Numbered from the stretch's first letter, positions 19,632-29,799 are shown. The stretch is DNA of 46,994 nucleotides from Mycobacterium sp. (GCA_003165155.1 PLSK01000251.1:1-46994), one strand, 5' to 3'. The notes: generated by a model from the letters alone, not told the origin. Numbers and translations: made by a program.

Positions 19632-20642
19632 TCAGGCCAGCCGCCGCAGCCTGGGCGCCAGATCCTTTTCGAACAGCTCCAGGAACCGGCGCTGGTCATG
19701 GCCTGGGGCGTGGAACACCAGGTGGTTGAGGCCCCACCCCACATATTGACCGACCTTTTCGACAGCCTCATCCGGGTCCGACGAGACGATCCAGCGCTTG
19801 GCGATCTGTTCGATCGGCAGCGCGTCGGCAGCCTTCTCCATCTCGATCGGGTCGTGAATGCTGGTCTTCTGTTCGGCCGTCAGCGACAACGGCGCCCAGA
19901 ACCGAGTGTTCTCCAGCGCCAGTTCGGCATCGGTGTCGTAGGAGATCTTGATTTCGATCATCCGGTCGATGTCGTCGGGATTCTTCCCCGCCGCCTCTGC
20001 GCCCTCCCTCATCGCGGGGATGAGCTTGTCCTTGTATAGCTCCTCGCCCTTGCCGGAGGTGCAGATGAAGCCGTCACCCGCGCGGCCGGCGTACTTGGCA
20101 ACCTGCGGGCCCCCCGCGGCGATGTAGATCGGGATGCCGCCCTCGGGCACGTCATAGATGGAGGCGCCCTTGGTGTGGTAATACTCGCCCTGGAAGTCGA
20201 CCCGGTCACCCAGCCACAGCTCGCGCATCAGCCGCACTGATTCGCGCAGCCGGGCATAGCGCTCCTTGAAGTCCGGCCATTCGCCCTCGTAACCGGTGGC
20301 GATTTCGTTGAGCGACTCCCCGGTGCCGACACCGAGGAAGATGCGATCCGTGTAGAGACACCCCATGGTGGCAAAGGCCTGCGCAATGACGGCGGGGTTG
20401 TACCGGAACGTAGGGGTGAGCACCGAAGTGCCCAGCTGGAGCCTTTTGGTGCGTTCGCCGACGGCGGTCATCCAGGCCAGCGAGAACGGGGCATGCCCGC
20501 CCTTGTGCCGCCAAGGCTGGAAGTGGTCGCTGACGCTGGCGCTGTCCATACCGTGAGCTTCGGCGGAAACGGCCAGTTCGACGAGCTCGCGCGGTGCGAA
20601 TTGTTCGGCAGATGCTTTGTATCCGAGTTTCAGTTCAGCCAC
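19632..20642 (-). CDS. fgd1: F420-dependent glucose-6-phosphate dehydrogenase
   Basis: [43 protein letters not shown]. Confidence 0.97.
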
Positions 20643-20659
20643 TCGTTCTTTCTACTCCC

Positions 20660-20767
20660 ATCCTCTGGTCGCGACCCGCCGCGCCCGGCTTCGCCGCGCT
20701 TGCGATCGCTCCTATCCTCTGGTCGCGACCCGCCGCGCCCGGCTTCGCCGCGCTTGCGATCGCTCCT
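20660..20767. repeat. MIRU/VNTR-like tandem repeat, 2 x 54 bp exact
   Basis: atcctctggtcgcgacccgccgcgcccggcttcgccgcgcttgcgatcgctcct at 20660 and 20714, between divergent fgd1 and MBL genes. Confidence 0.92.
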
Positions 20768-20778
20768 AGACTCGCGGC

Positions 20779-21537
20779 ATGACGCACCCGTCGTCGGAGA
20801 CGCCGACTCTTGTTCAGGTAACCGACACCGTCTACCTGGCCCAGGGCCACGCCGTGAACTGGGCGCTGGTTACCGGCGAGACCGGCGTCATGCTGATCGA
20901 TGCCGGTTATCCAGGTGACCGCGTGGACGTGCTGGCCTCGTTGCGCAAGCTGGGTTATGACGCCCGCGACGTGCGCGCCATCCTGCTGACACACGCGCAC
21001 ATCGACCACCTGGGTTCGGCGATCTGGTTCGCCAACGAGTACGGGACCCCGGTGTACTGCCATGCCGACGAGGTGGGGCACGCGAAGCGGGAGTACCTGG
21101 AGCAAGCCTCGGTTTTCGATGTCGCGCTCCGGATCTGGAAACCTCGATGGGCGGTGTGGGGCATGCACCTGGTCCGCAACGGCGGCTTGATCCGCGACGG
21201 CATCCCGAGCACCCAGCCGCTGACCGCCGAGACGGCGGCCGGACTGCCGGGTCATCCGATGGCCATCGCCACTCCGGGGCATACCAGCGGCCATTGTTCT
21301 TATGTCGTCGACGGCGTGCTGGCCAGCGGCGACGCGCTGATCACCGGCCATCCGCTGCTGCGTCGCAGCGGACCGCAGCTGCTGCCTGCGGTGTTCAGCC
21401 ACAGCCAGCAGAACAGTATGCGCAGCCTGAGCGCGCTGGCCCTGCTGGACACCCAGATTCTGCTGCCCGGTCACGGCGATGTGTGGCGCGGCCCGATCCG
21501 CGAGGCCACCGAAACGGCCATATCGCTGGCCCAGTAA
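20779..21537 (+). CDS. Metallo-beta-lactamase-fold hydrolase (Rv0406c-like)
   Basis: THAHIDH, PGHTSGH, GDALIT, PGHG motifs. Confidence 0.92.
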   Translation: MTHPSSETPTLVQVTDTVYLAQGHAVNWALVTGETGVMLIDAGYPGDRVDVLASLRKLGYDARDVRAILLTHAHIDHLGSAIWFANEYGTPVYCHADEVGHAKREYLEQASVFDVALRIWKPRWAVWGMHLVRNGGLIRDGIPSTQPLTAETAAGLPGHPMAIATPGHTSGHCSYVVDGVLASGDALITGHPLLRRSGPQLLPAVFSHSQQNSMRSLSALALLDTQILLPGHGDVWRGPIREATETAISLAQ

Positions 21538-21549
21538 GGGAACTTCATT

Positions 21550-21885
21550 GTGACGGTGGCCAAGTCGATTGCATTGTTTGCCCTGGCGGCGCTGTTCGAG
21601 ATCGGCGGCGCATGGTTGATTTGGCAGGGGACGCGTGAACATCGTGGCTGGATGTGGATGGGCAGCGGCGTCGTCGCGCTCGGCGCCTACGGCTTTGTTG
21701 CCACCCTGCAAGCCGACGCCCATTTCGGTCGTATCCTGGCTGCGTACGGAGGTATCTTCGTCGCGGGCTCACTGCTGTGGGGAATGGGCTTCGATGGATT
21801 TCGGCCCGATCGTTGGGATGTCGCCGGAGCTGTGATCTGCTTGCTGGGTGTGGCCATCATCATGTACGCGCCACGAACTCACTGA
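21550..21885 (+). CDS. YnfA/UPF0060 small membrane protein
   Basis: [31 protein letters not shown] motifs; four TM segments. Confidence 0.9.
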
Positions 21886-23231
21886 CACTCACCGACCCTA
21901 AGACCCAGGTGCTCGCGCAGGGTTTCGCCGCTGTACTCGGTGCGGAATGCGCCGCGCTCCTGTAACAGCGGCACCACCCGGTCGACAAACTCGTCCAAAC
22001 CGCGCGGCGTCAGGTGCGGCACCAAGATGAAACCGTCGCACGCGTCGGCCTGGACATACTGGTCAATCTCAGTCGCGACTTGCGCGGCGGTGCCGACGAA
22101 CTGCTGCCGGTTGGTGACCGCGATTACCAGCTCGCGGATGGACAGGTTCTCCGCCTCGGCACGTTCGCGGTAATCGCGAACCACCGCAGCCGGGTCGACG
22201 TGGCGTACCCGGCCCTGGGTGATGCCGGTGTCGTCGGTCGGGTCGATATCGGGTAGCGGGCCGTCAGGGTCGTAGCCTGATAGGTCGCGGCCCCACACCT
22301 GCTCGAGCATTGCGATCGCCGTCGCCCCGCTCACCTGTTGATGGCGGATGTGCCGCGCCTTGTCCTCGGCATCCGCGCCAGTGTCCCCAATAACGAACGT
22401 CGTCGCCGGGAAAACCTTGAGCTGGTCCGCATCTCGACCGTAGGACACCGCGCTGCCCTTGACGTCAGCGTAGTAACGCTGACCGTCCTGCAACGACGAG
22501 TGCAGGGTGAACAGCGCGTCGGCGTACCTGGCTCCGAACGCGCGGCCGTCGGCGGAGTCACCGGCCTGCAGCAACACCGGATGACCCTGCGGCCCCGGCG
22601 GCAGCGTCGCGAACCCTCGCACGGCGAATTGCGATCCCGAGTGCTCGACGCGGTGGATTCGGTCCGGATCGACGTAGACCCCGGCCTCCAGGTCGGCAAG
22701 CACGGCGTCGGCATCCCAGCTATCCCAGAATCGCCGGGCCACCGTCACGAATTCCTCGGCGCGCGCGTACCGATCGGCATAGTCGAGAAATCCCCCGCGC
22801 CGGAAGTTGGCACCCGTGAAGGCGTCCGATGAGGTGACGATGTTCCAGCCGGCCCGGCCACCGGACAGATGGTCAAGCGTCGCGAATTGCCTTGCCACCT
22901 CGAATGGCTCGTTGAAGGTGGTGTTGATGGTTCCCGTCAGCCCGATCCGGTCGGTGACGCCGGCCAGCGCGGCCAGCACGGTGAACGTGTCCGGACGACC
23001 CACCACGTCGAGGTCGTAGATGTGCCCGCGGCGCTCCCGCAGCCGAAGCCCCTCGGCGAGAAAGAAGAAGTCGAACAATCCGCGTTCCGCGGTGCGGGCG
23101 AGGTGCACGAACGAGTCGAAATCGATCTGGCTGCCCGCGCTCGGGTCCGTCCACACCGTGGTGTTATTGACACCCGGGAAATGGGCTGCCAGGTGAATCA
23201 GCTTGCGGTCCTTGCCTTCCCGGACATTCAC
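21879..23231 (-). CDS. NtaA/DmoA-family FMN-dependent monooxygenase
   Basis: [55 protein letters not shown]; GTG start overlaps the upstream stop. Confidence 0.9.
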
Positions 23232-24358
23232 GCGTTCAGTCCCCAGCGCTTGGCAATCAATTCGTGTGAGCGCAGCCGGTCTACGTTCCGGTAGGTCACC
23301 GACGTGACGACAAGCTCGTCGGCGCCGGTGACCCGCTGCAGCGTCTCTAGACGTTCGGCGACTTCGTCGGCGGTGCCGACGAATTGTGTTGCTATCCGGT
23401 CTTTTACCACGGTCAGCTGCTCGTCGGTCAGCGGTGTGAAATTGTCGGGGTCGGGGTATTGCATGGCGCCGACACCGGTTCGGATTGAATACACCCACCG
23501 GCCGTAGCCGGCCGCCAGGCGTTTGGCGGTAGCGCTATCGTCAGCGACCACGATGTCGGCCGATACCACAACGTAGGGCTGCGCCAGCATCGCCGACGGC
23601 CTGAAAGTGTCGCGGTACGCGTCGATAGCCTCCAGCGTGGTGGCCGGTGTGATGTGATAGCTCGCGACGAAGGGCAGACCGAGTGCTCCTGCCAAACGCG
23701 CGCTTTGGCCTCTGGTACTGCCGAAGATCCATGGCGTCAGCGCGGCCCCTTCGCCGGGCACCGCGTGCACATCGGACCCGCCCGCTTGATAACTGCCATC
23801 CAGCAAGGCGATGATGTCACCGACCTGCTCGGCGAAGTCGGGTGACACCGCCTCGGGCTGCTGCAGAATCGCCATGGTGGCCTGCAACGCCTCCATGTTG
23901 AGCAGTCCGCGCACATCGAACGGCGTCGGAACCACGAGACCGTCGACCTCGTGCCACACTCGCGGCGGTCTGGGTTCTCTCGGCTTCTTGGGTTGGTGCT
24001 CTTCGGACCGACGCTGCCCGGACCGACCAACACCGAGATCGATGCGTCCGGGATAGAACGCGTCCAACGTGCCAAAGCTCTCGACCACCGCGGCCGCGGT
24101 GGTGTAACCCAGCTGCACCGCGGCCGCACCCACCCGAATCCTGTTGGTAGCTGCGGCGATTTGGCCGATCAATACGGCCGGCGATGAGCTGGCGACGCCG
24201 ACGAAGTGATGCTCGGCGATCCAGTACCGGTGAAACCCCCACTCCTCGGCACGCTGGGCCAGCTCAATCGTGTTTCGTAACGCCGTCGCGGCGTCACTGC
24301 CGGCGCTGATCGGCGCCAGGTCCAGAATTGACAGCGGCACGGTACCCGAGATATTCAC
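23228..24358 (-). CDS. Luciferase-like (LLM) monooxygenase, MsnO8/CmoO-like
   Basis: LSILDLAPI, YWIAEHH, RIRVG, PGRIDLGVGR, GADEL motifs. Confidence 0.88.
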   Translation of the reverse strand: MNISGTVPLSILDLAPISAGSDAATALRNTIELAQRAEEWGFHRYWIAEHHFVGVASSSPAVLIGQIAAATNRIRVGAAAVQLGYTTAAAVVESFGTLDAFYPGRIDLGVGRSGQRRSEEHQPKKPREPRPPRVWHEVDGLVVPTPFDVRGLLNMEALQATMAILQQPEAVSPDFAEQVGDIIALLDGSYQAGGSDVHAVPGEGAALTPWIFGSTRGQSARLAGALGLPFVASYHITPATTLEAIDAYRDTFRPSAMLAQPYVVVSADIVVADDSATAKRLAAGYGRWVYSIRTGVGAMQYPDPDNFTPLTDEQLTVVKDRIATQFVGTADEVAERLETLQRVTGADELVVTSVTYRNVDRLRSHELIAKRWGLNA

Positions 24359-25455
24359 CAGGCCACCGCCTTGTACCGGTTCGGCGCGACCGGCAGGCCC
24401 AGCCGTGCGCGCAGCGTTTCGCCGTCCCGGTAGCCGGCGCGGAATCGCCCGGCTTTCTGCAGCAGCGGCACCACTCGGTCGACGATCACCGGGAGATCGG
24501 TGGCGTTGACGGAAGGCCGCAACCGTGCGCCGTCGACGCCCAGCCGCTGCCAGTCGAGCAACATGTCAACCAATTCCTCTGGGCTGCCGCCGAAGTCGAG
24601 CGCATCAGAGCGGGGGTCGCCCTCGCCGTCGAAAGACACCAGCACGTCCGCGAAGACCTTCAAATCGGCGCCACCGGCCGCGCGAACCTGATCGAGGATG
24701 CTTCGCAGCGACGCGTCGTCGGTGGGTGTGATGAACACGATATCGGCACTGGCGGCGGCGAATTCGTACACCGGGCCGGCGTGCGCCAGCGCAGCCACCA
24801 CCGGCTGGCCCTGCGGTGGACGTGGCGTGATCGACGGACCCTTGACCGAGAAGTACTGCCCGGCGAAATCGATGTAGTGCAGTTTGTCCGTGTCGACGTA
24901 GCGCCCGGTGGTCACGTCGCGGATGATCGCGTCGTCCTCCCAGCTGTCCCAGAGCCGGCGCACCACGTCGACGTACTCGGCGGCCTCTTCGAAGTAGGCA
25001 ACTTGGGTTTCGTCTCGTCGGCCGAACAGGGCCGCCTCGTGCGCGGTTGCACTGATGCGTGCCTGCCAGCCCGCCCGGCCGTGCGACACATAGTCAAGGG
25101 TGGCGATGGCTTTGGAGACGTGGAAGGGCTCGGTGTGGGTGACCGTCGCCACAGGAATCAACCCGATGTGGCGCGTCGCCGGGGCGATGCGCGCCGCGAC
25201 CAGCACGGCGTCCCCGCGGCCGGCCAGACGTCGCGGGTCGATCCGCTCGCGACGCCCCGGCTGCGGCATCAGGGTGTCGTCAATGGTGAGGAAGTCGAGC
25301 AGTCCACGTTCGGCGGTGGCCGCCAGGTCGGCCCAGTAGCGGCCACTGAGCACCGACGGGGTGCCGGAGTCTGACACCAGCGTGGTCCGCCAGGCCTGCG
25401 GGTGCCATCCGTACCCGTCCAGCGCGACCGCCAGGTGCAGCAGCGTGCCGGTCAC
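24355..25455 (-). CDS. LLM flavin-dependent oxidoreductase, short NtaA/DszA-like
   Basis: HLAVALDGYGWHPQAWR, AERGLLDFLTIDD, HTEPFHVSKAIATLDYVSHGRAGW, FSVKGP, VVPLLQ. Confidence 0.88.
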   Translation of the reverse strand: MTGTLLHLAVALDGYGWHPQAWRTTLVSDSGTPSVLSGRYWADLAATAERGLLDFLTIDDTLMPQPGRRERIDPRRLAGRGDAVLVAARIAPATRHIGLIPVATVTHTEPFHVSKAIATLDYVSHGRAGWQARISATAHEAALFGRRDETQVAYFEEAAEYVDVVRRLWDSWEDDAIIRDVTTGRYVDTDKLHYIDFAGQYFSVKGPSITPRPPQGQPVVAALAHAGPVYEFAAASADIVFITPTDDASLRSILDQVRAAGGADLKVFADVLVSFDGEGDPRSDALDFGGSPEELVDMLLDWQRLGVDGARLRPSVNATDLPVIVDRVVPLLQKAGRFRAGYRDGETLRARLGLPVAPNRYKAVAW

Positions 25456-25940
25456 GCGAGTTTCTTCTCGAATGCGATCGGGAAGACCGGACCGTCGGAC
25501 GGCAGTGGTTCCGGCAACCGGGTATACCCGCCGGCCTCGTAGAGCTTCTCGGCCTCGGGCTGGCGATCGCCGGTCATCAGGTAGATCCTCCGGTAGCCCC
25601 GGGCAGCGATCTCGGCCTCCAGCTCGACCAACAGCGCCATCGCGAATCCACGACGCCGATGTTCGCTGTCCGTCCAGATTCTCTTGAGTTCGGCGGTGTC
25701 GGCATCAAATCGCCGAAACCCACCGCCGGTGACCGGACGGCCGTCCAGTAAACCGATCAACATTCCGCCGTCGGGCGGTGCGAACTCGTCGGTCGGATTG
25801 TGCTTCAACCAGCCCAAAACCATCGACTGGGGGCGGTCATAGCGCTGCGCGTACTCGACCGCCAACTCCGCCACCAACGGCTGCGCCAGCGCATGGTCCA
25901 AGTTGGCCGGCACAAACCTGAGTTGGGTCTTGGGCATCAC
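25452..25940 (-). CDS. GNAT N-acetyltransferase
   Basis: AELKRIWT...HRRRGFA (acetyl-CoA motif A), TGDRQPEA..LY...GY. Confidence 0.9.
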   Translation of the reverse strand: MMPKTQLRFVPANLDHALAQPLVAELAVEYAQRYDRPQSMVLGWLKHNPTDEFAPPDGGMLIGLLDGRPVTGGGFRRFDADTAELKRIWTDSEHRRRGFAMALLVELEAEIAARGYRRIYLMTGDRQPEAEKLYEAGGYTRLPEPLPSDGPVFPIAFEKKLA

Positions 25941-25989
25941 TTACGATCCAACGTCTCCGACGCCCACGCATTCCGGGCCCGCATTTTCG

Positions 25990-26352
25990 TCAGACGCCGG
26001 ATCGGTCCCGCGAGATCAGCCCAACGACCGCGCGCCAACCGAGTAAAAGAACCGCGGTGACCGATGCCGCGACGACCACAAAACTCACCGCTACACCCGC
26101 CGAACTGGCTTTGCGCAACGCCATGCCGACCAGCACGGTGCTCAGCCAGACAACCACCCCGGTTGGGGCCACCGCCGTGGGCCGCCGCCAGGCACGGGAC
26201 GCCAGCCAGCCCAGGGCCGTTCCAGTGAGAAACGGCCATGCGGTGGTTGCGACGCCGGTGAGGGTGATTCCCTCGGCGTGGCTGCGGCGTCCGACAGCGC
26301 AGAACACCAGCACACCGATGACGTCCATGACGAGCCACCCCGGCCGCTGCAT
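25990..26352 (-). CDS. DUF3054-family membrane protein (Rv0401-like)
   Basis: D...V.VF...GRRSH..G, TAWPF, FVVVA..LLLGWR; divergent from fadE7. Confidence 0.85.
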   Translation of the reverse strand: MQRPGWLVMDVIGVLVFCAVGRRSHAEGITLTGVATTAWPFLTGTALGWLASRAWRRPTAVAPTGVVVWLSTVLVGMALRKASSAGVAVSFVVVAASVTAVLLLGWRAVVGLISRDRSGV

Positions 26353-26404
26353 GCAGCGAGACTACCGGGCCTGGTTCATGCCTCGACGTGGCAGGCTGAT
26401 TGCC

Positions 26405-27601
26405 ATGAGCACGGTTGCCTTACCCGCCTTCGACCGATACGACCCCCTCGGGCTCGATGCCTCGCTGTCGAGCGACGAGATCGCGGTGCGCGACACCGTC
26501 AGAAAGTTCTGCGCCGAACACGTCACCCCGCACGTCGCCGAATGGTTCGAAATCGGCGACCTTCCGGTCCGCCAACTCGGGAAGCAGTTCGGCGAACTCG
26601 GCCTGCTCGGTATGCACCTGGACGGCTACGGATGCGGCGGGGCATCGGCGGTGCACTACGGCCTGGCGTGCGTTGAACTAGAGGCGGCCGACTCCGGCCT
26701 TCGGTCGATGGTCTCGGTGCAGGGGTCGCTGGCGATGTTCGCGATCTGGAACTTCGGCTCCGAGGAGCAGAAGCAACAATGGCTGCCCGGCATGGCCACC
26801 GGCGAACTGCTCGGCTGCTTCGGGCTGACCGAGCCCGATGTCGGATCCGATCCCGCCGCGATGAAAACCCGGGCCCGACGCGATGGTTCCGATTGGGTGC
26901 TCAACGGCCGCAAGATGTGGATCACCAACGGATCGGTCGCCGATGTCGCCGTAGTGTGGGCCGCCATCGACGACGACGGAGGCCGCGGAATTCGGGGCTT
27001 CCTGGTCCCAACGGGCGCAGCAGGTTTCACCGCCAACACCATCCACCACAAGCTGTCGCTGCGGGCATCGATCACCAGCGAGCTGGTGCTCGACGACGTA
27101 CGGTTGCCCGCGGACGCGATGCTGCCCGACGCGAAGGGTCTCAAAGGGCCGCTGTCCTGCTTGTCCGAGGCGCGCTACGGAATCATCTGGGGATCCATGG
27201 GAGCGGCCCGGTCGGCCTGGCAATCCGCGCTCGACTACGCGACGCAGCGCACCCAATTCGGCCGTCCGATCGCCGGATTCCAGTTGACCCAGGCAAAACT
27301 GGTCGACATGGCGGTGGAACTTCACAAGGGGCAGCTGCTGTCGCTGCACCTGGGGCGCCTTAAGGACAGCGTCGGACTGCGTCCCGAACAGGTCAGCTTC
27401 GGCAAGCTCAACAACACCCGTGAGGCGATCAAAATCTGCCGAACCGCTCGAACGATATTGGGCGGCAACGGGATATCGCTGGAGTACCCGATAATCCGGC
27501 ACATGGTGAACCTGGAGTCGGTGCTGACTTACGAGGGCACACCGGAGATGCATCAACTGATTCTCGGCCAGGCTTTCACCGGTAGCGACGCTTTCCGATG
27601 A
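26405..27601 (+). CDS. fadE7: Acyl-CoA dehydrogenase (glutaryl-CoA dehydrogenase-like)
   Basis: GCFGLTEPDVGSDP, NGRKMWITNG, KLSLRAS, LGGNGI, TYEGT. Confidence 0.9.
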   Translation: MSTVALPAFDRYDPLGLDASLSSDEIAVRDTVRKFCAEHVTPHVAEWFEIGDLPVRQLGKQFGELGLLGMHLDGYGCGGASAVHYGLACVELEAADSGLRSMVSVQGSLAMFAIWNFGSEEQKQQWLPGMATGELLGCFGLTEPDVGSDPAAMKTRARRDGSDWVLNGRKMWITNGSVADVAVVWAAIDDDGGRGIRGFLVPTGAAGFTANTIHHKLSLRASITSELVLDDVRLPADAMLPDAKGLKGPLSCLSEARYGIIWGSMGAARSAWQSALDYATQRTQFGRPIAGFQLTQAKLVDMAVELHKGQLLSLHLGRLKDSVGLRPEQVSFGKLNNTREAIKICRTARTILGGNGISLEYPIIRHMVNLESVLTYEGTPEMHQLILGQAFTGSDAFR

Positions 27602-28222: not shown

Positions 28223-29707
28223 CTAAAAGGGCGGTGGTTCGTCGTCGGGTGAGGGTGTGTGTTGTGCGGCTTGGTATGCGGCTTGTCTGCGTTTCCGGTT
28301 GTGGCTTCGTTCGGTGGCTACGCGTTGGGCGCGGTCTTGGGCGCGGGTGCGTCGGCGTTTGGGCATCATCGCGGCGCGGTCGGGGCTGTAGGCGATGCGG
28401 TGATGGGTGTGGACGGCGGGCATCCCGGCGACCGGGGTGCACAGGTTGGGGAACAGCAGGGCGCTGCCCGGGGTGGTGACATAGGTGTGTTTGGTCGGTG
28501 AGGTCAGGATCAGGGTGCCATCAGGCAGTTGTTGTTCGCCCCAGTCGTAGAACGTCTTCACCAAATGATGTGTACGGCAATAACACTTGAGATTGGCCAC
28601 ATGCGTAGGGCCGCCCTCAGAGTAGGGAATCGTATGGTCCACATCGCAATCGTGTGCGGGGTGATCACAGCCCGGCCAGCGACACGTCAGATCGCGACAA
28701 CGCACGAAATCAGCCAACGCCTTCGAAGGGGTATAGCGGGGTTCGGGTGGACTGTCACCGGGATGGATCAAGGGTACGAGTTTCGCGGTGCCCGCCAGCT
28801 CGGCGACCACTTCCGGCGGGATCAACCCGTCCGCGCCGATCTCGGACCCCGGCGCGGTACCGCCGGTCAGGGTGGACTGCTCGGCGATCACATGAATCAC
28901 CACCGGGGAAGCCGGCGGACGCGCCCAGGCCGCACAATCCGGTCGATCGCAGCGGCAGCCCAACCGGTCCGCCCCGGCAGCCAACGCCCCCAACGCATCA
29001 GCGCGGCGCTGATCGCGGGTACGGGGGTCGTGCGGGCAGACCGTGGCCGCCAACGCGGTGAGCCGTTCGTCTAGGGCCATCCCGTCGGGCTGCAGCAGAG
29101 TGCCCGACAGCTCGCACAGCCCGTCGGTCCGCACATTGATGCAGACCTGACGATCAGCCTGGTATTGGATGCGTTCGCGCAGCGCATCGCGGTCGGCTTT
29201 GACCACAATCTTGTCGATCGCACCCGCGAGCCGCCCGCGGCTCATCGAGGGCCAGCGCGCCACATTGGCCGCCAACTGTGAATCCACGGTGGCCATCAGC
29301 GCGGGGTCCTCGATCAGATCGGTGCGAAACACGATGGTCTGAAACATCCGGAAATCGATATCCCCGGCCTGAAAAACGTCACCCACCTTCGGCAGGCGTT
29401 CGCGCATCGCCCGGGCATACCGCAACCGACTCGCGGCCAGCCCTTGGCTGATCCGCAACGCCGCACCCACCTCAGCAGTCACCGCCTCCACGGTGTCAAT
29501 CGCCCAGTCCTCAGTCTCCGAACACCGCGACAACCGATACCCGAACAACTCCCCGACCGCGACCAACTGCGCGGCCGCCGCCCGATTCTCGACACGGGTG
29601 GCCGCACACATCCGCTCCACCAACGCCGCCGACTCCTCGGTCGTCGACGGACAATGGCGCTCCGAGCTGTCGGCAATCACCGCGGAGAACGCATCGGGAT
29701 CGAACAT
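28223..29707 (-). CDS. DUF222 + HNH endonuclease (REP13E12 family)
   Basis: MFD start, RTRDQRRADALGAL, FVRCRDLTCRWPGCD, CDVDHTIPY, NLKCYCRTHHLVKT, C-terminal DEPPPF. Confidence 0.92.
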   Translation of the reverse strand: MFDPDAFSAVIADSSERHCPSTTEESAALVERMCAATRVENRAAAAQLVAVGELFGYRLSRCSETEDWAIDTVEAVTAEVGAALRISQGLAASRLRYARAMRERLPKVGDVFQAGDIDFRMFQTIVFRTDLIEDPALMATVDSQLAANVARWPSMSRGRLAGAIDKIVVKADRDALRERIQYQADRQVCINVRTDGLCELSGTLLQPDGMALDERLTALAATVCPHDPRTRDQRRADALGALAAGADRLGCRCDRPDCAAWARPPASPVVIHVIAEQSTLTGGTAPGSEIGADGLIPPEVVAELAGTAKLVPLIHPGDSPPEPRYTPSKALADFVRCRDLTCRWPGCDHPAHDCDVDHTIPYSEGGPTHVANLKCYCRTHHLVKTFYDWGEQQLPDGTLILTSPTKHTYVTTPGSALLFPNLCTPVAGMPAVHTHHRIAYSPDRAAMMPKRRRTRAQDRAQRVATERSHNRKRRQAAYQAAQHTPSPDDEPPPF

Positions 29708-29715
29708 ACATTCGA
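29700..29715. promoter_or_regulatory. LexA SOS-box-like palindrome over the HNH gene start codon
   Basis: TCGAAC-ATAC-ATTCGA; one mismatch to the mycobacterial consensus TCGAAC-N4-GTTCGA. Confidence 0.65.
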
Positions 29716-29736
29716 GTATGCCATGACCCGCCGACA
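29715..29736 (-). promoter_or_regulatory. PafBC-type (RecA-NDp) DNA-damage promoter
   Basis: Minus strand TGTCGG-N10-CATACT versus consensus TGTCGG-N10-TA-N3-T; the ATG follows 7 nt after the -10 hexamer, consistent with a leaderless transcript. Confidence 0.6.
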
Positions 29737-29799
29737 CGACAGTACGACACGCAGCCGGCTCGCCGAAAAGTGGTGATACGTGCCGGGCTCACATACGAC

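Follow-up and report, generated by a model that had tools for sequence, protein, structure and literature searches.

Two operons of Bacillus subtilis come closest to the gene cluster studied here: Cmo (ytmI-ytnM), which serves S-alkylcysteine salvage and encodes SnaA, TcyJKLMN, CmoO, CmoI, CmoJ, RibR and SndA (PMC10863075), and Scm (yxeK-Q), which includes - next to SnaB/YxeL and YxeP - the N-acetyl-S-(2-succino)cysteine monooxygenase ScmK/YxeK (PMC9706529). Such a kit is uncharacterised in actinobacteria, a related design being proven only in Bacillus subtilis, and little is known of how mycobacteria and their relatives salvage organosulfur; our literature search found no paper on this cluster in mycobacteria. 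Here we analyse a stretch of 46,994 nucleotides (nt) from an environmental Mycobacterium sp. (GCA_003165155.1 PLSK01000251.1:1-46994; hereafter the window), in which positions 21,879 to 25,940 hold an operon for a GNAT N-acetyltransferase followed by three luciferase-like monooxygenases (LLMs), called short, middle and long below in the order of their genes. With a probability of roughly 0.5, we read it as a sulfur-limitation operon that scavenges sulfur from an amino-acid-like organosulfur compound and follows the acetylate-oxidise-cleave plan of B. subtilis with different parts. Of the original prediction, made from the sequence alone, this retains the sulfur-salvage operon and its acetylate-then-oxidise plan and gives up two elements, in that one LLM emerges as a degenerate partner and the GNAT as non-orthologous to its supposed Bacillus counterparts.

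Support for this reading comes from gene content, translational coupling, protein families, cysteine and methionine (Cys/Met) depletion, riboswitches in relatives and the co-occurrence of the short and long genes as a pair. In the mechanism we envisage, the GNAT would N-acetylate an S-substituted amino acid, the middle (MsnO8-family) LLM would oxygenate the sulfur and the full-length NtaA-type LLM would cleave the C-S bond with reduced flavin mononucleotide (FMNH2) and O2. The short LLM would act as an obligate partner, probably as a heterodimer subunit of the long LLM comparable to LuxB with LuxA or NtfO1 with NtfO2, while other parts of the genome would provide reduced flavin and the last, deacetylating step; there we find flavin reductases (four PF01613 genes) as well as two M20 amidohydrolases homologous to SndA/YxeP.

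The predicted link to sulfur salvage gains support from the extreme Cys/Met poverty of the three LLMs. Computed without the initiator and ranked against 2575 open reading frames (ORFs) of the same genome (mean 2.86%), Cys+Met content is 0.55% in the short (percentile 1.9), 1.07% in the middle (percentile 6.1) and 0.67% in the long LLM (percentile 3.0), whereas the GNAT is not depleted (3.1%) and the genes flanking the operon range from 2.4 to 4.4%. Homologues in 20 loci are poorer still, with means of 0.19% (short), 0.67% (middle) and 0.36% (long) against 2.53% for the 232 neighbours in those loci. The LLM paralogues found in the same genome are normal: 25 of them, with fgd1 and the short LLM of the window counted in, average 2.59%, a second NtaA-type gene (C229) has 3.27% and a CmoO-like paralogue (C286) 2.51%. 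As positive controls, a sulfate ABC (ATP-binding cassette) binding protein (C101:4378-5361) and the O-acetylhomoserine sulfhydrylase MetY both contain 0.00%, and SufD is also among the genome's most depleted proteins. For comparison with Bacillus we used B. stercoris, a close B. subtilis relative reached via a Pveg probe, whose yxeK-Q and ytmI-ytnM operons were identified from gene order. Its CmoO (0.90%) and CmoJ (1.09%) are depleted and its SnaA (3.33%) is not, which is the pattern of the window operon. Apart from this operon, a tandem of TIGR03620 F420-dependent LLM genes (G000:C169:2712-4645; L064, L065) is nearly Cys/Met-free as well (0.35 and 0.29%).

Control by sulfur status is suggested by S-adenosylmethionine (SAM) riboswitches in front of homologous operons, a further argument for the predicted sulfur link. 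When the regions upstream of 60 homologous short+long pairs were scanned with Rfam, five pairs - in four other genomes and three genera - had a SAM riboswitch directly upstream on the same strand (Table 1). One of these operons (L112) starts with an orthologous GNAT and runs SAM-I, GNAT (50% identical to that of the window), a CE1758/2I7G-like LLM, short and long; in genus g6, the GNAT is the first gene after the riboswitch. The only SAM-IV element of the window's own genome precedes the gene for MetY. Separately, genus g11 carries, about 4 kb from a short+long pair, divergent SAM-IV elements governing a SufS-like cysteine desulfurase together with a TIGR04028-like family-5 solute-binding protein; the locus resembles a small sulfur island. 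Literature searches on seuABC of C. glutamicum and on SAM-IV together with LLMs gave nothing usable, and a protein atlas yielded no further information.

In the leader of the window operon, upstream of the GNAT gene, lies a motif (CGGAATGC, 15 nt, GTTGGA), conserved in an alignment of five Mycobacterium species, which might act as a promoter or an operator. As a regulon motif we rejected it: the sole other genomic copy is at control level, hence there is no regulon evidence for it. The leader gave no Rfam match, even at E up to 1, and a promoter and terminator scan found nothing on the coding strand.

On the level of families, the analogy drawn originally with CmoO and CmoJ stands; the identities of the long LLM to ScmK and CmoJ (40-42%) are lower than expected of orthologues. 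The long LLM reaches 452.7 bits against TIGR03860 (curated cut-off 279.7 bits) over positions 9-422 of this 422-position model. Ranked by bit score, its relatives in the PDB are CmoJ/YtnJ (306 bits), nitrilotriacetate (NTA) monooxygenase (291) and BdsA (269), and ScmK/YxeK (41.6% identity, 342 bits) and CmoJ (39.6%) of B. stercoris are its best Bacillus-group matches. Its family retains WNxVTS, RY and QAGxS, the motifs that hold the BdsA FMN contacts V137, S139, R159, Y160 and L230. We propose the long LLM as candidate C-S-cleaving catalytic subunit. The middle LLM belongs with TIGR03558 (296.3 bits, cut-off 166.95 bits) and matches MsnO8 among solved structures. Since CmoO itself is a TIGR03558 protein (343.1 bits in B. 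stercoris), the family composition of the operon mirrors SnaA-CmoO-CmoJ. Identity between the middle LLM and CmoO is 48% over the first 108 amino acids (aa) only. An insertion of about 50 aa that follows a PGRIDLGxGRS motif is common to the middle LLM and its orthologues adjoining pairs; neither CmoO nor a generic paralogue of the same genome has it.

As for the GNAT, originally likened to that of the snaA-cmoO-cmoJ pathway, no specific similarity to SnaA or SnaB was found: among the B. stercoris proteins, SnaA/YtmI gave E 0.5 in blastp and SnaB/YxeL 0.007, and the best solved relative, B. subtilis YsnE, is a weak match. Moreover, it is all that two species of the genus (G031, G138) retain after losing the LLMs, and thus may have an independent role. 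(A weak GNAT match in G069 was used for no claim.) These properties fit an alternative that we regard as possible, albeit clearly less probable than our own reading, namely sulfur scavenging with other chemistry or another substrate. Here, the targets of the LLMs would be sulfonates, their esters, sulfones or oxidised methionine, in the style of DszA, SfnG or Seu, and the GNAT would prepare no substrate and could detoxify an analogue, for instance methionine sulfoximine or sulfone, or act separately. Such a scenario agrees with a long LLM that resembles CmoJ little more than it does BdsA and NTA monooxygenase, with SAM as a control signal in relatives, which points to the methionine pool, and with the second LLM of the L112 operon, which is CE1758/2I7G-like and not MsnO8-like. 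It is harder to reconcile with the company the GNAT keeps: 15 of its 24 homologues (at least 45% identity, outside its own genome) adjoin a short+long pair or lie up to 7 kb away on the same strand, in five genera, and in g6 it comes first after the riboswitch. Nor does it sit well with the best matches that the long LLM has in Bacillus, both of them enzymes for N-acetylated cysteine thioethers.

Where the original prediction counted three flavin monooxygenases, we find a short LLM that has lost its lid along with residues contacting FMN, and whose behaviour is that of an obligate partner to the long LLM. It falls below the TIGR03860 cut-off, the match being confined to positions 2-251 of the model and a piece at the C-terminus. 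When 17 short proteins were aligned with 21 long ones, the short family was about 85-100 residues shorter and has lost WNxVTS, RY and QAGxS, all invariant in the long family. Mapped on BdsA, the gap corresponds to residues ~272-371, that is to the whole IS5 lid including H316, and of the other sites H156 falls into a gap, R159 is replaced by Y or L, Y160 by F and QAGLS by ALAHA. In BdsA, the IS5 lid makes up the opening by which FMN and substrate enter and carries H316, H156 binds phosphate, and FMN-contact residues including H156 and R159 are essential in that single mutations nearly abolish activity (PMC5819316). Among 151 Mycobacteriaceae genomes, a long-type gene (E <= 1e-110) occurs in 52, with 68 genes in total and up to three pairs per genome; for 66 of the 68, a short-type gene lies no more than about 2.5 kb away, mostly immediately upstream and often overlapping, and the pairs show stop/start overlaps at many loci. 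Conversely, the short-type gene is almost never found without an adjacent long gene. Because lid and FMN contacts are lost, yet the protein is strongly conserved and its gene adjoins that of the long LLM, the short LLM is probably a conserved, non-catalytic partner subunit. That it might be a truncated pseudogene was rejected, as its family is large and made up of proteins of 365-400 aa.

A precedent for such an arrangement exists in structure 7E36, the NtfO1-NtfO2 heterodimer, in which the lid is absent from one subunit (PMC8027225). The short LLM matches chain A and the long LLM chain B of this structure. An AlphaFold2 model of the short LLM is a TIM barrel (predicted local distance difference test, pLDDT, 79; predicted TM-score, pTM, 0.83) and lies closest to BdsA, NTA monooxygenase and CmoJ in a fold search. 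We rejected the short LLM as an NtfO1 orthologue, NtfO1 being 11th in a profile search and 25th in the fold search; lid loss in the short LLM thus appears independent, since it is nearer to NTA monooxygenase, CmoJ and BdsA. Bacterial luciferase LuxAB and the pristinamycin IIA synthase SnaA/SnaB are heterodimeric LLMs, too, and a two-subunit LLM architecture has so far been known only from luciferase and antibiotic tailoring.

Improbable in our view is the pathway as originally proposed, with three catalytically active LLMs that would oxygenate an acetylated organosulfur compound three times in succession. What speaks for it is strong purifying selection on the short LLM (129 invariant positions of its own) together with the retained TIM barrel and an equivalent of S139 in the flavin site of BdsA. 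An enzyme without IS5 lid (H316), without equivalents of H156 and R159 and without the QAGxS loop, which scores below the family cut-off and almost never occurs without the adjacent long gene, is difficult to see as a third catalyst. As a separate observation, partner identities do not run in parallel. Where the window's long LLM has its nearest relatives (66-73%), the short member of the pair shares only 45-51% identity with the window short LLM, and for the pairs with the nearest short partners outside the genus (55-62%) the long partners stand at 53-64%. This mismatch suggests unequal rates or partner re-assortment.

Taking this further, we tentatively suggest - as an idea we would not bet on at present - that the short+long pair may be an obligate alpha/beta-type heterodimeric NtaA-family C-S monooxygenase that serves primary sulfur metabolism throughout Mycobacteriaceae and is regulated by SAM or sulfur starvation, and that in mycobacteria it could recycle mercapturic acids. 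These N-acetylcysteine S-conjugates would come from mycothiol-dependent detoxification, and the GNAT would widen the range to free S-alkylcysteines. If our main reading is right, it would name a widespread module, account for the degeneracy of one of the 'three monooxygenases', offer concrete substrates and partners and improve the annotation of thousands of 'LLM class flavin-dependent oxidoreductase' genes.

A role outside sulfur metabolism, be it aminopolycarboxylate or xenobiotic catabolism or secondary-metabolite tailoring as with NtfO1/O2, SnaA/SnaB and MsnO8, is very improbable, for although NTA monooxygenase, MsnO8 and NtfO1/O2 are among the nearest relatives of solved structure and the window operon has no sulfur transporter or regulator, there is no biosynthetic cluster nearby, the extreme Cys/Met depletion is specific to the operon's LLMs, relatives stand under SAM riboswitches and the SAM-IV-controlled neighbours in g11 are sulfur-related.

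Several points weigh against the acetylate-oxidise-cleave reading itself, beginning with those already met: the GNAT is not an orthologue of SnaA or SnaB and persists alone in two species, and the short LLM keeps the S139 equivalent. There is neither a riboswitch nor a recognisable sulfur regulator site upstream of the window operon, and 55 of the 60 pairs had no upstream riboswitch in the Rfam scan. With 41.6% identity to B. stercoris YxeK, the long LLM stays under the >50% identity to B. subtilis YxeK by which YxeK orthologues have been defined (PMC9706529). Its similarity to ScmK and CmoJ barely exceeds that to NTA monooxygenase and BdsA, and a fuller and closer CmoO-like paralogue is encoded elsewhere in the genome, on C286. 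Low Cys/Met content is shared by unrelated PE-PGRS and EccD proteins. The short+long heterodimer, probable as it seems, is deduced from sequence and synteny only. Finally, the window operon contains no gene for a deacetylase, an importer, a CmoI-like protein or a flavin reductase; the neighbourhoods of 20 homologous loci showed no conserved importer, deacetylase, CmoI-like or reductase gene, and flanks differ between genera.

The predicted architecture, four coupled minus-strand genes joined by three GTGA overlaps, is borne out by the sequence (Table 1). N-termini read from the GTG starts of the overlapping genes align with homologues, and none of the four genes is broken, given that their lengths equal those of orthologues. 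Close homologues carry the label Mycobacterium sp.

Table 1. Operon features in the window, and riboswitches and partial loci elsewhere (positions without prefix are those of the window)
Feature	Position	Strand	Match or score	Remark
GNAT N-acetyltransferase, 162 aa	25452-25940	(-)	PF00583, E 1e-11	first gene of the operon
Short NtaA-like LLM, 366 aa	24355-25455	(-)	Bac_luciferase; TIGR03860, 242.5 bits	below cut-off
MsnO8-family LLM (subfamily of CmoO), 376 aa	23228-24358	(-)	TIGR03558, 296.3 bits	middle LLM; ~50-aa insertion
Full-length NtaA/DmoA-family FMNH2-dependent monooxygenase, 450 aa	21879-23231	(-)	TIGR03860, 452.7 bits	long LLM
GTGA overlap	25452-25455	(-)		GNAT stop / short LLM start
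GTGA overlap	24355-24358	(-)		short LLM stop / MsnO8-family LLM start
GTGA overlap	23228-23231	(-)		MsnO8-family LLM stop / long LLM start
Leader, 49 nt	25941-25989	(-)		DUF3054 gene to GNAT; holds conserved motif
Leader motif	25947-25975	(-)		upstream of GNAT
DUF3054 gene (Rv0401-like)	25990-26352			49 nt upstream of GNAT
YnfA/UPF0060 small membrane-protein gene	21550-21885	(+)	PF02694, E 3.6e-40	
SAM-IV (L034)	G103:C11		84.9 bits	~105 nt ahead of short gene
SAM-I (L041)	G110:C3		44.8 bits (gathering score 44.4)	ahead of two tandem pairs
SAM-I (L110)	G103:C1		62.9 bits	abuts short gene
SAM-I (L112)	G038:C4		49.5 bits	operon head
SAM-I (L111)	G060:C69		46.7 bits	operon head
SAM-IV, own genome	G000:C244:833-953			precedes MetY gene
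MetY, 446 aa	G000:C244:1138-2478			
SAM-IV, g11	L043:15541-15654	(-)		divergent
SAM-IV, g11	L043:15866-15984	(+)		divergent
SAM-IV, g11	L044:15463-15575	(-)		
Partial operon (L117)	G055:C5			GNAT and middle MsnO8-type LLM kept
Partial operon (L116)	G094:C3:28000-47999			middle LLM, short gene with deletion, long gene in fragments
GNAT alone (L114)	G031:C1			beside MBL-fgd1 (MBL, metallo-beta-lactamase)
GNAT alone (L115)	G138:C4			beside MBL-fgd1

On one side, the operon is flanked by the DUF3054 gene and then a divergent acyl-CoA dehydrogenase gene (fadE7-like), on the other by the YnfA/UPF0060 gene, a metallo-beta-lactamase-fold (Rv0406c-like) gene, fgd1, pta and ackA. The YnfA/UPF0060 gene is convergent with the long LLM gene, overlaps its 3' end by 7 nt and marks the end of the operon. 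These flanks would match the Rv0400c-Rv0401 ... Rv0406c-Rv0409 frame of M. tuberculosis, and the operon may take roughly the place that mmpL1-pks6 has on the H37Rv map, as originally suggested. A 514-aa acyl-CoA dehydrogenase ORF overlaps the DUF3054 gene, the stretch in question being 26057-26431 (+), and its domains start at residue 139, hence the true start probably lies close to 26432. Between the fadE7 side and a metZ-like gene lies the gene for a DUF222 protein (PF02720, 300 bits) at 28223-29737 (-). An ORF of 362 aa at 20635-21723 (-), antisense to the metallo-beta-lactamase and YnfA genes and without a family, was dropped as probably spurious.

Within the genus, the operon is undergoing stepwise loss. 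It is complete at the same locus in G109 and G124 and complete in G077, there away from fgd1-pta, and from this full form it is reduced to the GNAT with one LLM, to fragments and to the GNAT alone (Table 1). This series fits niche-dependent loss of sulfur scavenging.

How does the operon compare with known systems? With the dibenzothiophene-sulfone monooxygenase DszA/BdsA (5XKD, PMC5819316), the long LLM shares the NtaA-type fold, and BdsA carries out FMNH2-dependent C-S cleavage, whereas the window operon lacks the partners DszB and DszC and the BdsA score (269) is lower than those of CmoJ (306) and NTA monooxygenase (291). A Rhodococcus proteomics table of proteins with sulfur roles has NtaA-type entries, one labelled ScmK (PMC8557817). 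NtfO1-NtfO2 and StmO1-StmO2 (7E36, PMC8027225) resemble the window operon in their adjacent, overlapping genes for a full-length NtaA-type and a shorter, lid-less LLM. They serve antibiotic tailoring, however, where we propose primary sulfur metabolism, and the window complex is a predicted one. The Scm operon has the same acetylate-then-oxygenate logic with a neighbouring GNAT, and its ScmK is the long LLM's best Bacillus-group match; the window operon, in turn, is without ABC importer, YxeP and YxeQ and has two extra LLM genes. Differences from Cmo are that the window GNAT shares only its fold with SnaA, that identity between the long LLM and CmoJ is 39.6%, that the middle LLM has the insertion and is joined by an extra lid-less short LLM, and that importer, CmoI, flavin reductase and deacetylase are part of the Cmo operon only. 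Nevertheless, Cmo matches the window operon in having a GNAT, an MsnO8-family LLM and an NtaA/DmoA-family LLM in one operon, in LLMs (but not a GNAT) poor in Cys/Met and, as judged from the window's relatives, in control by sulfur or methionine status.

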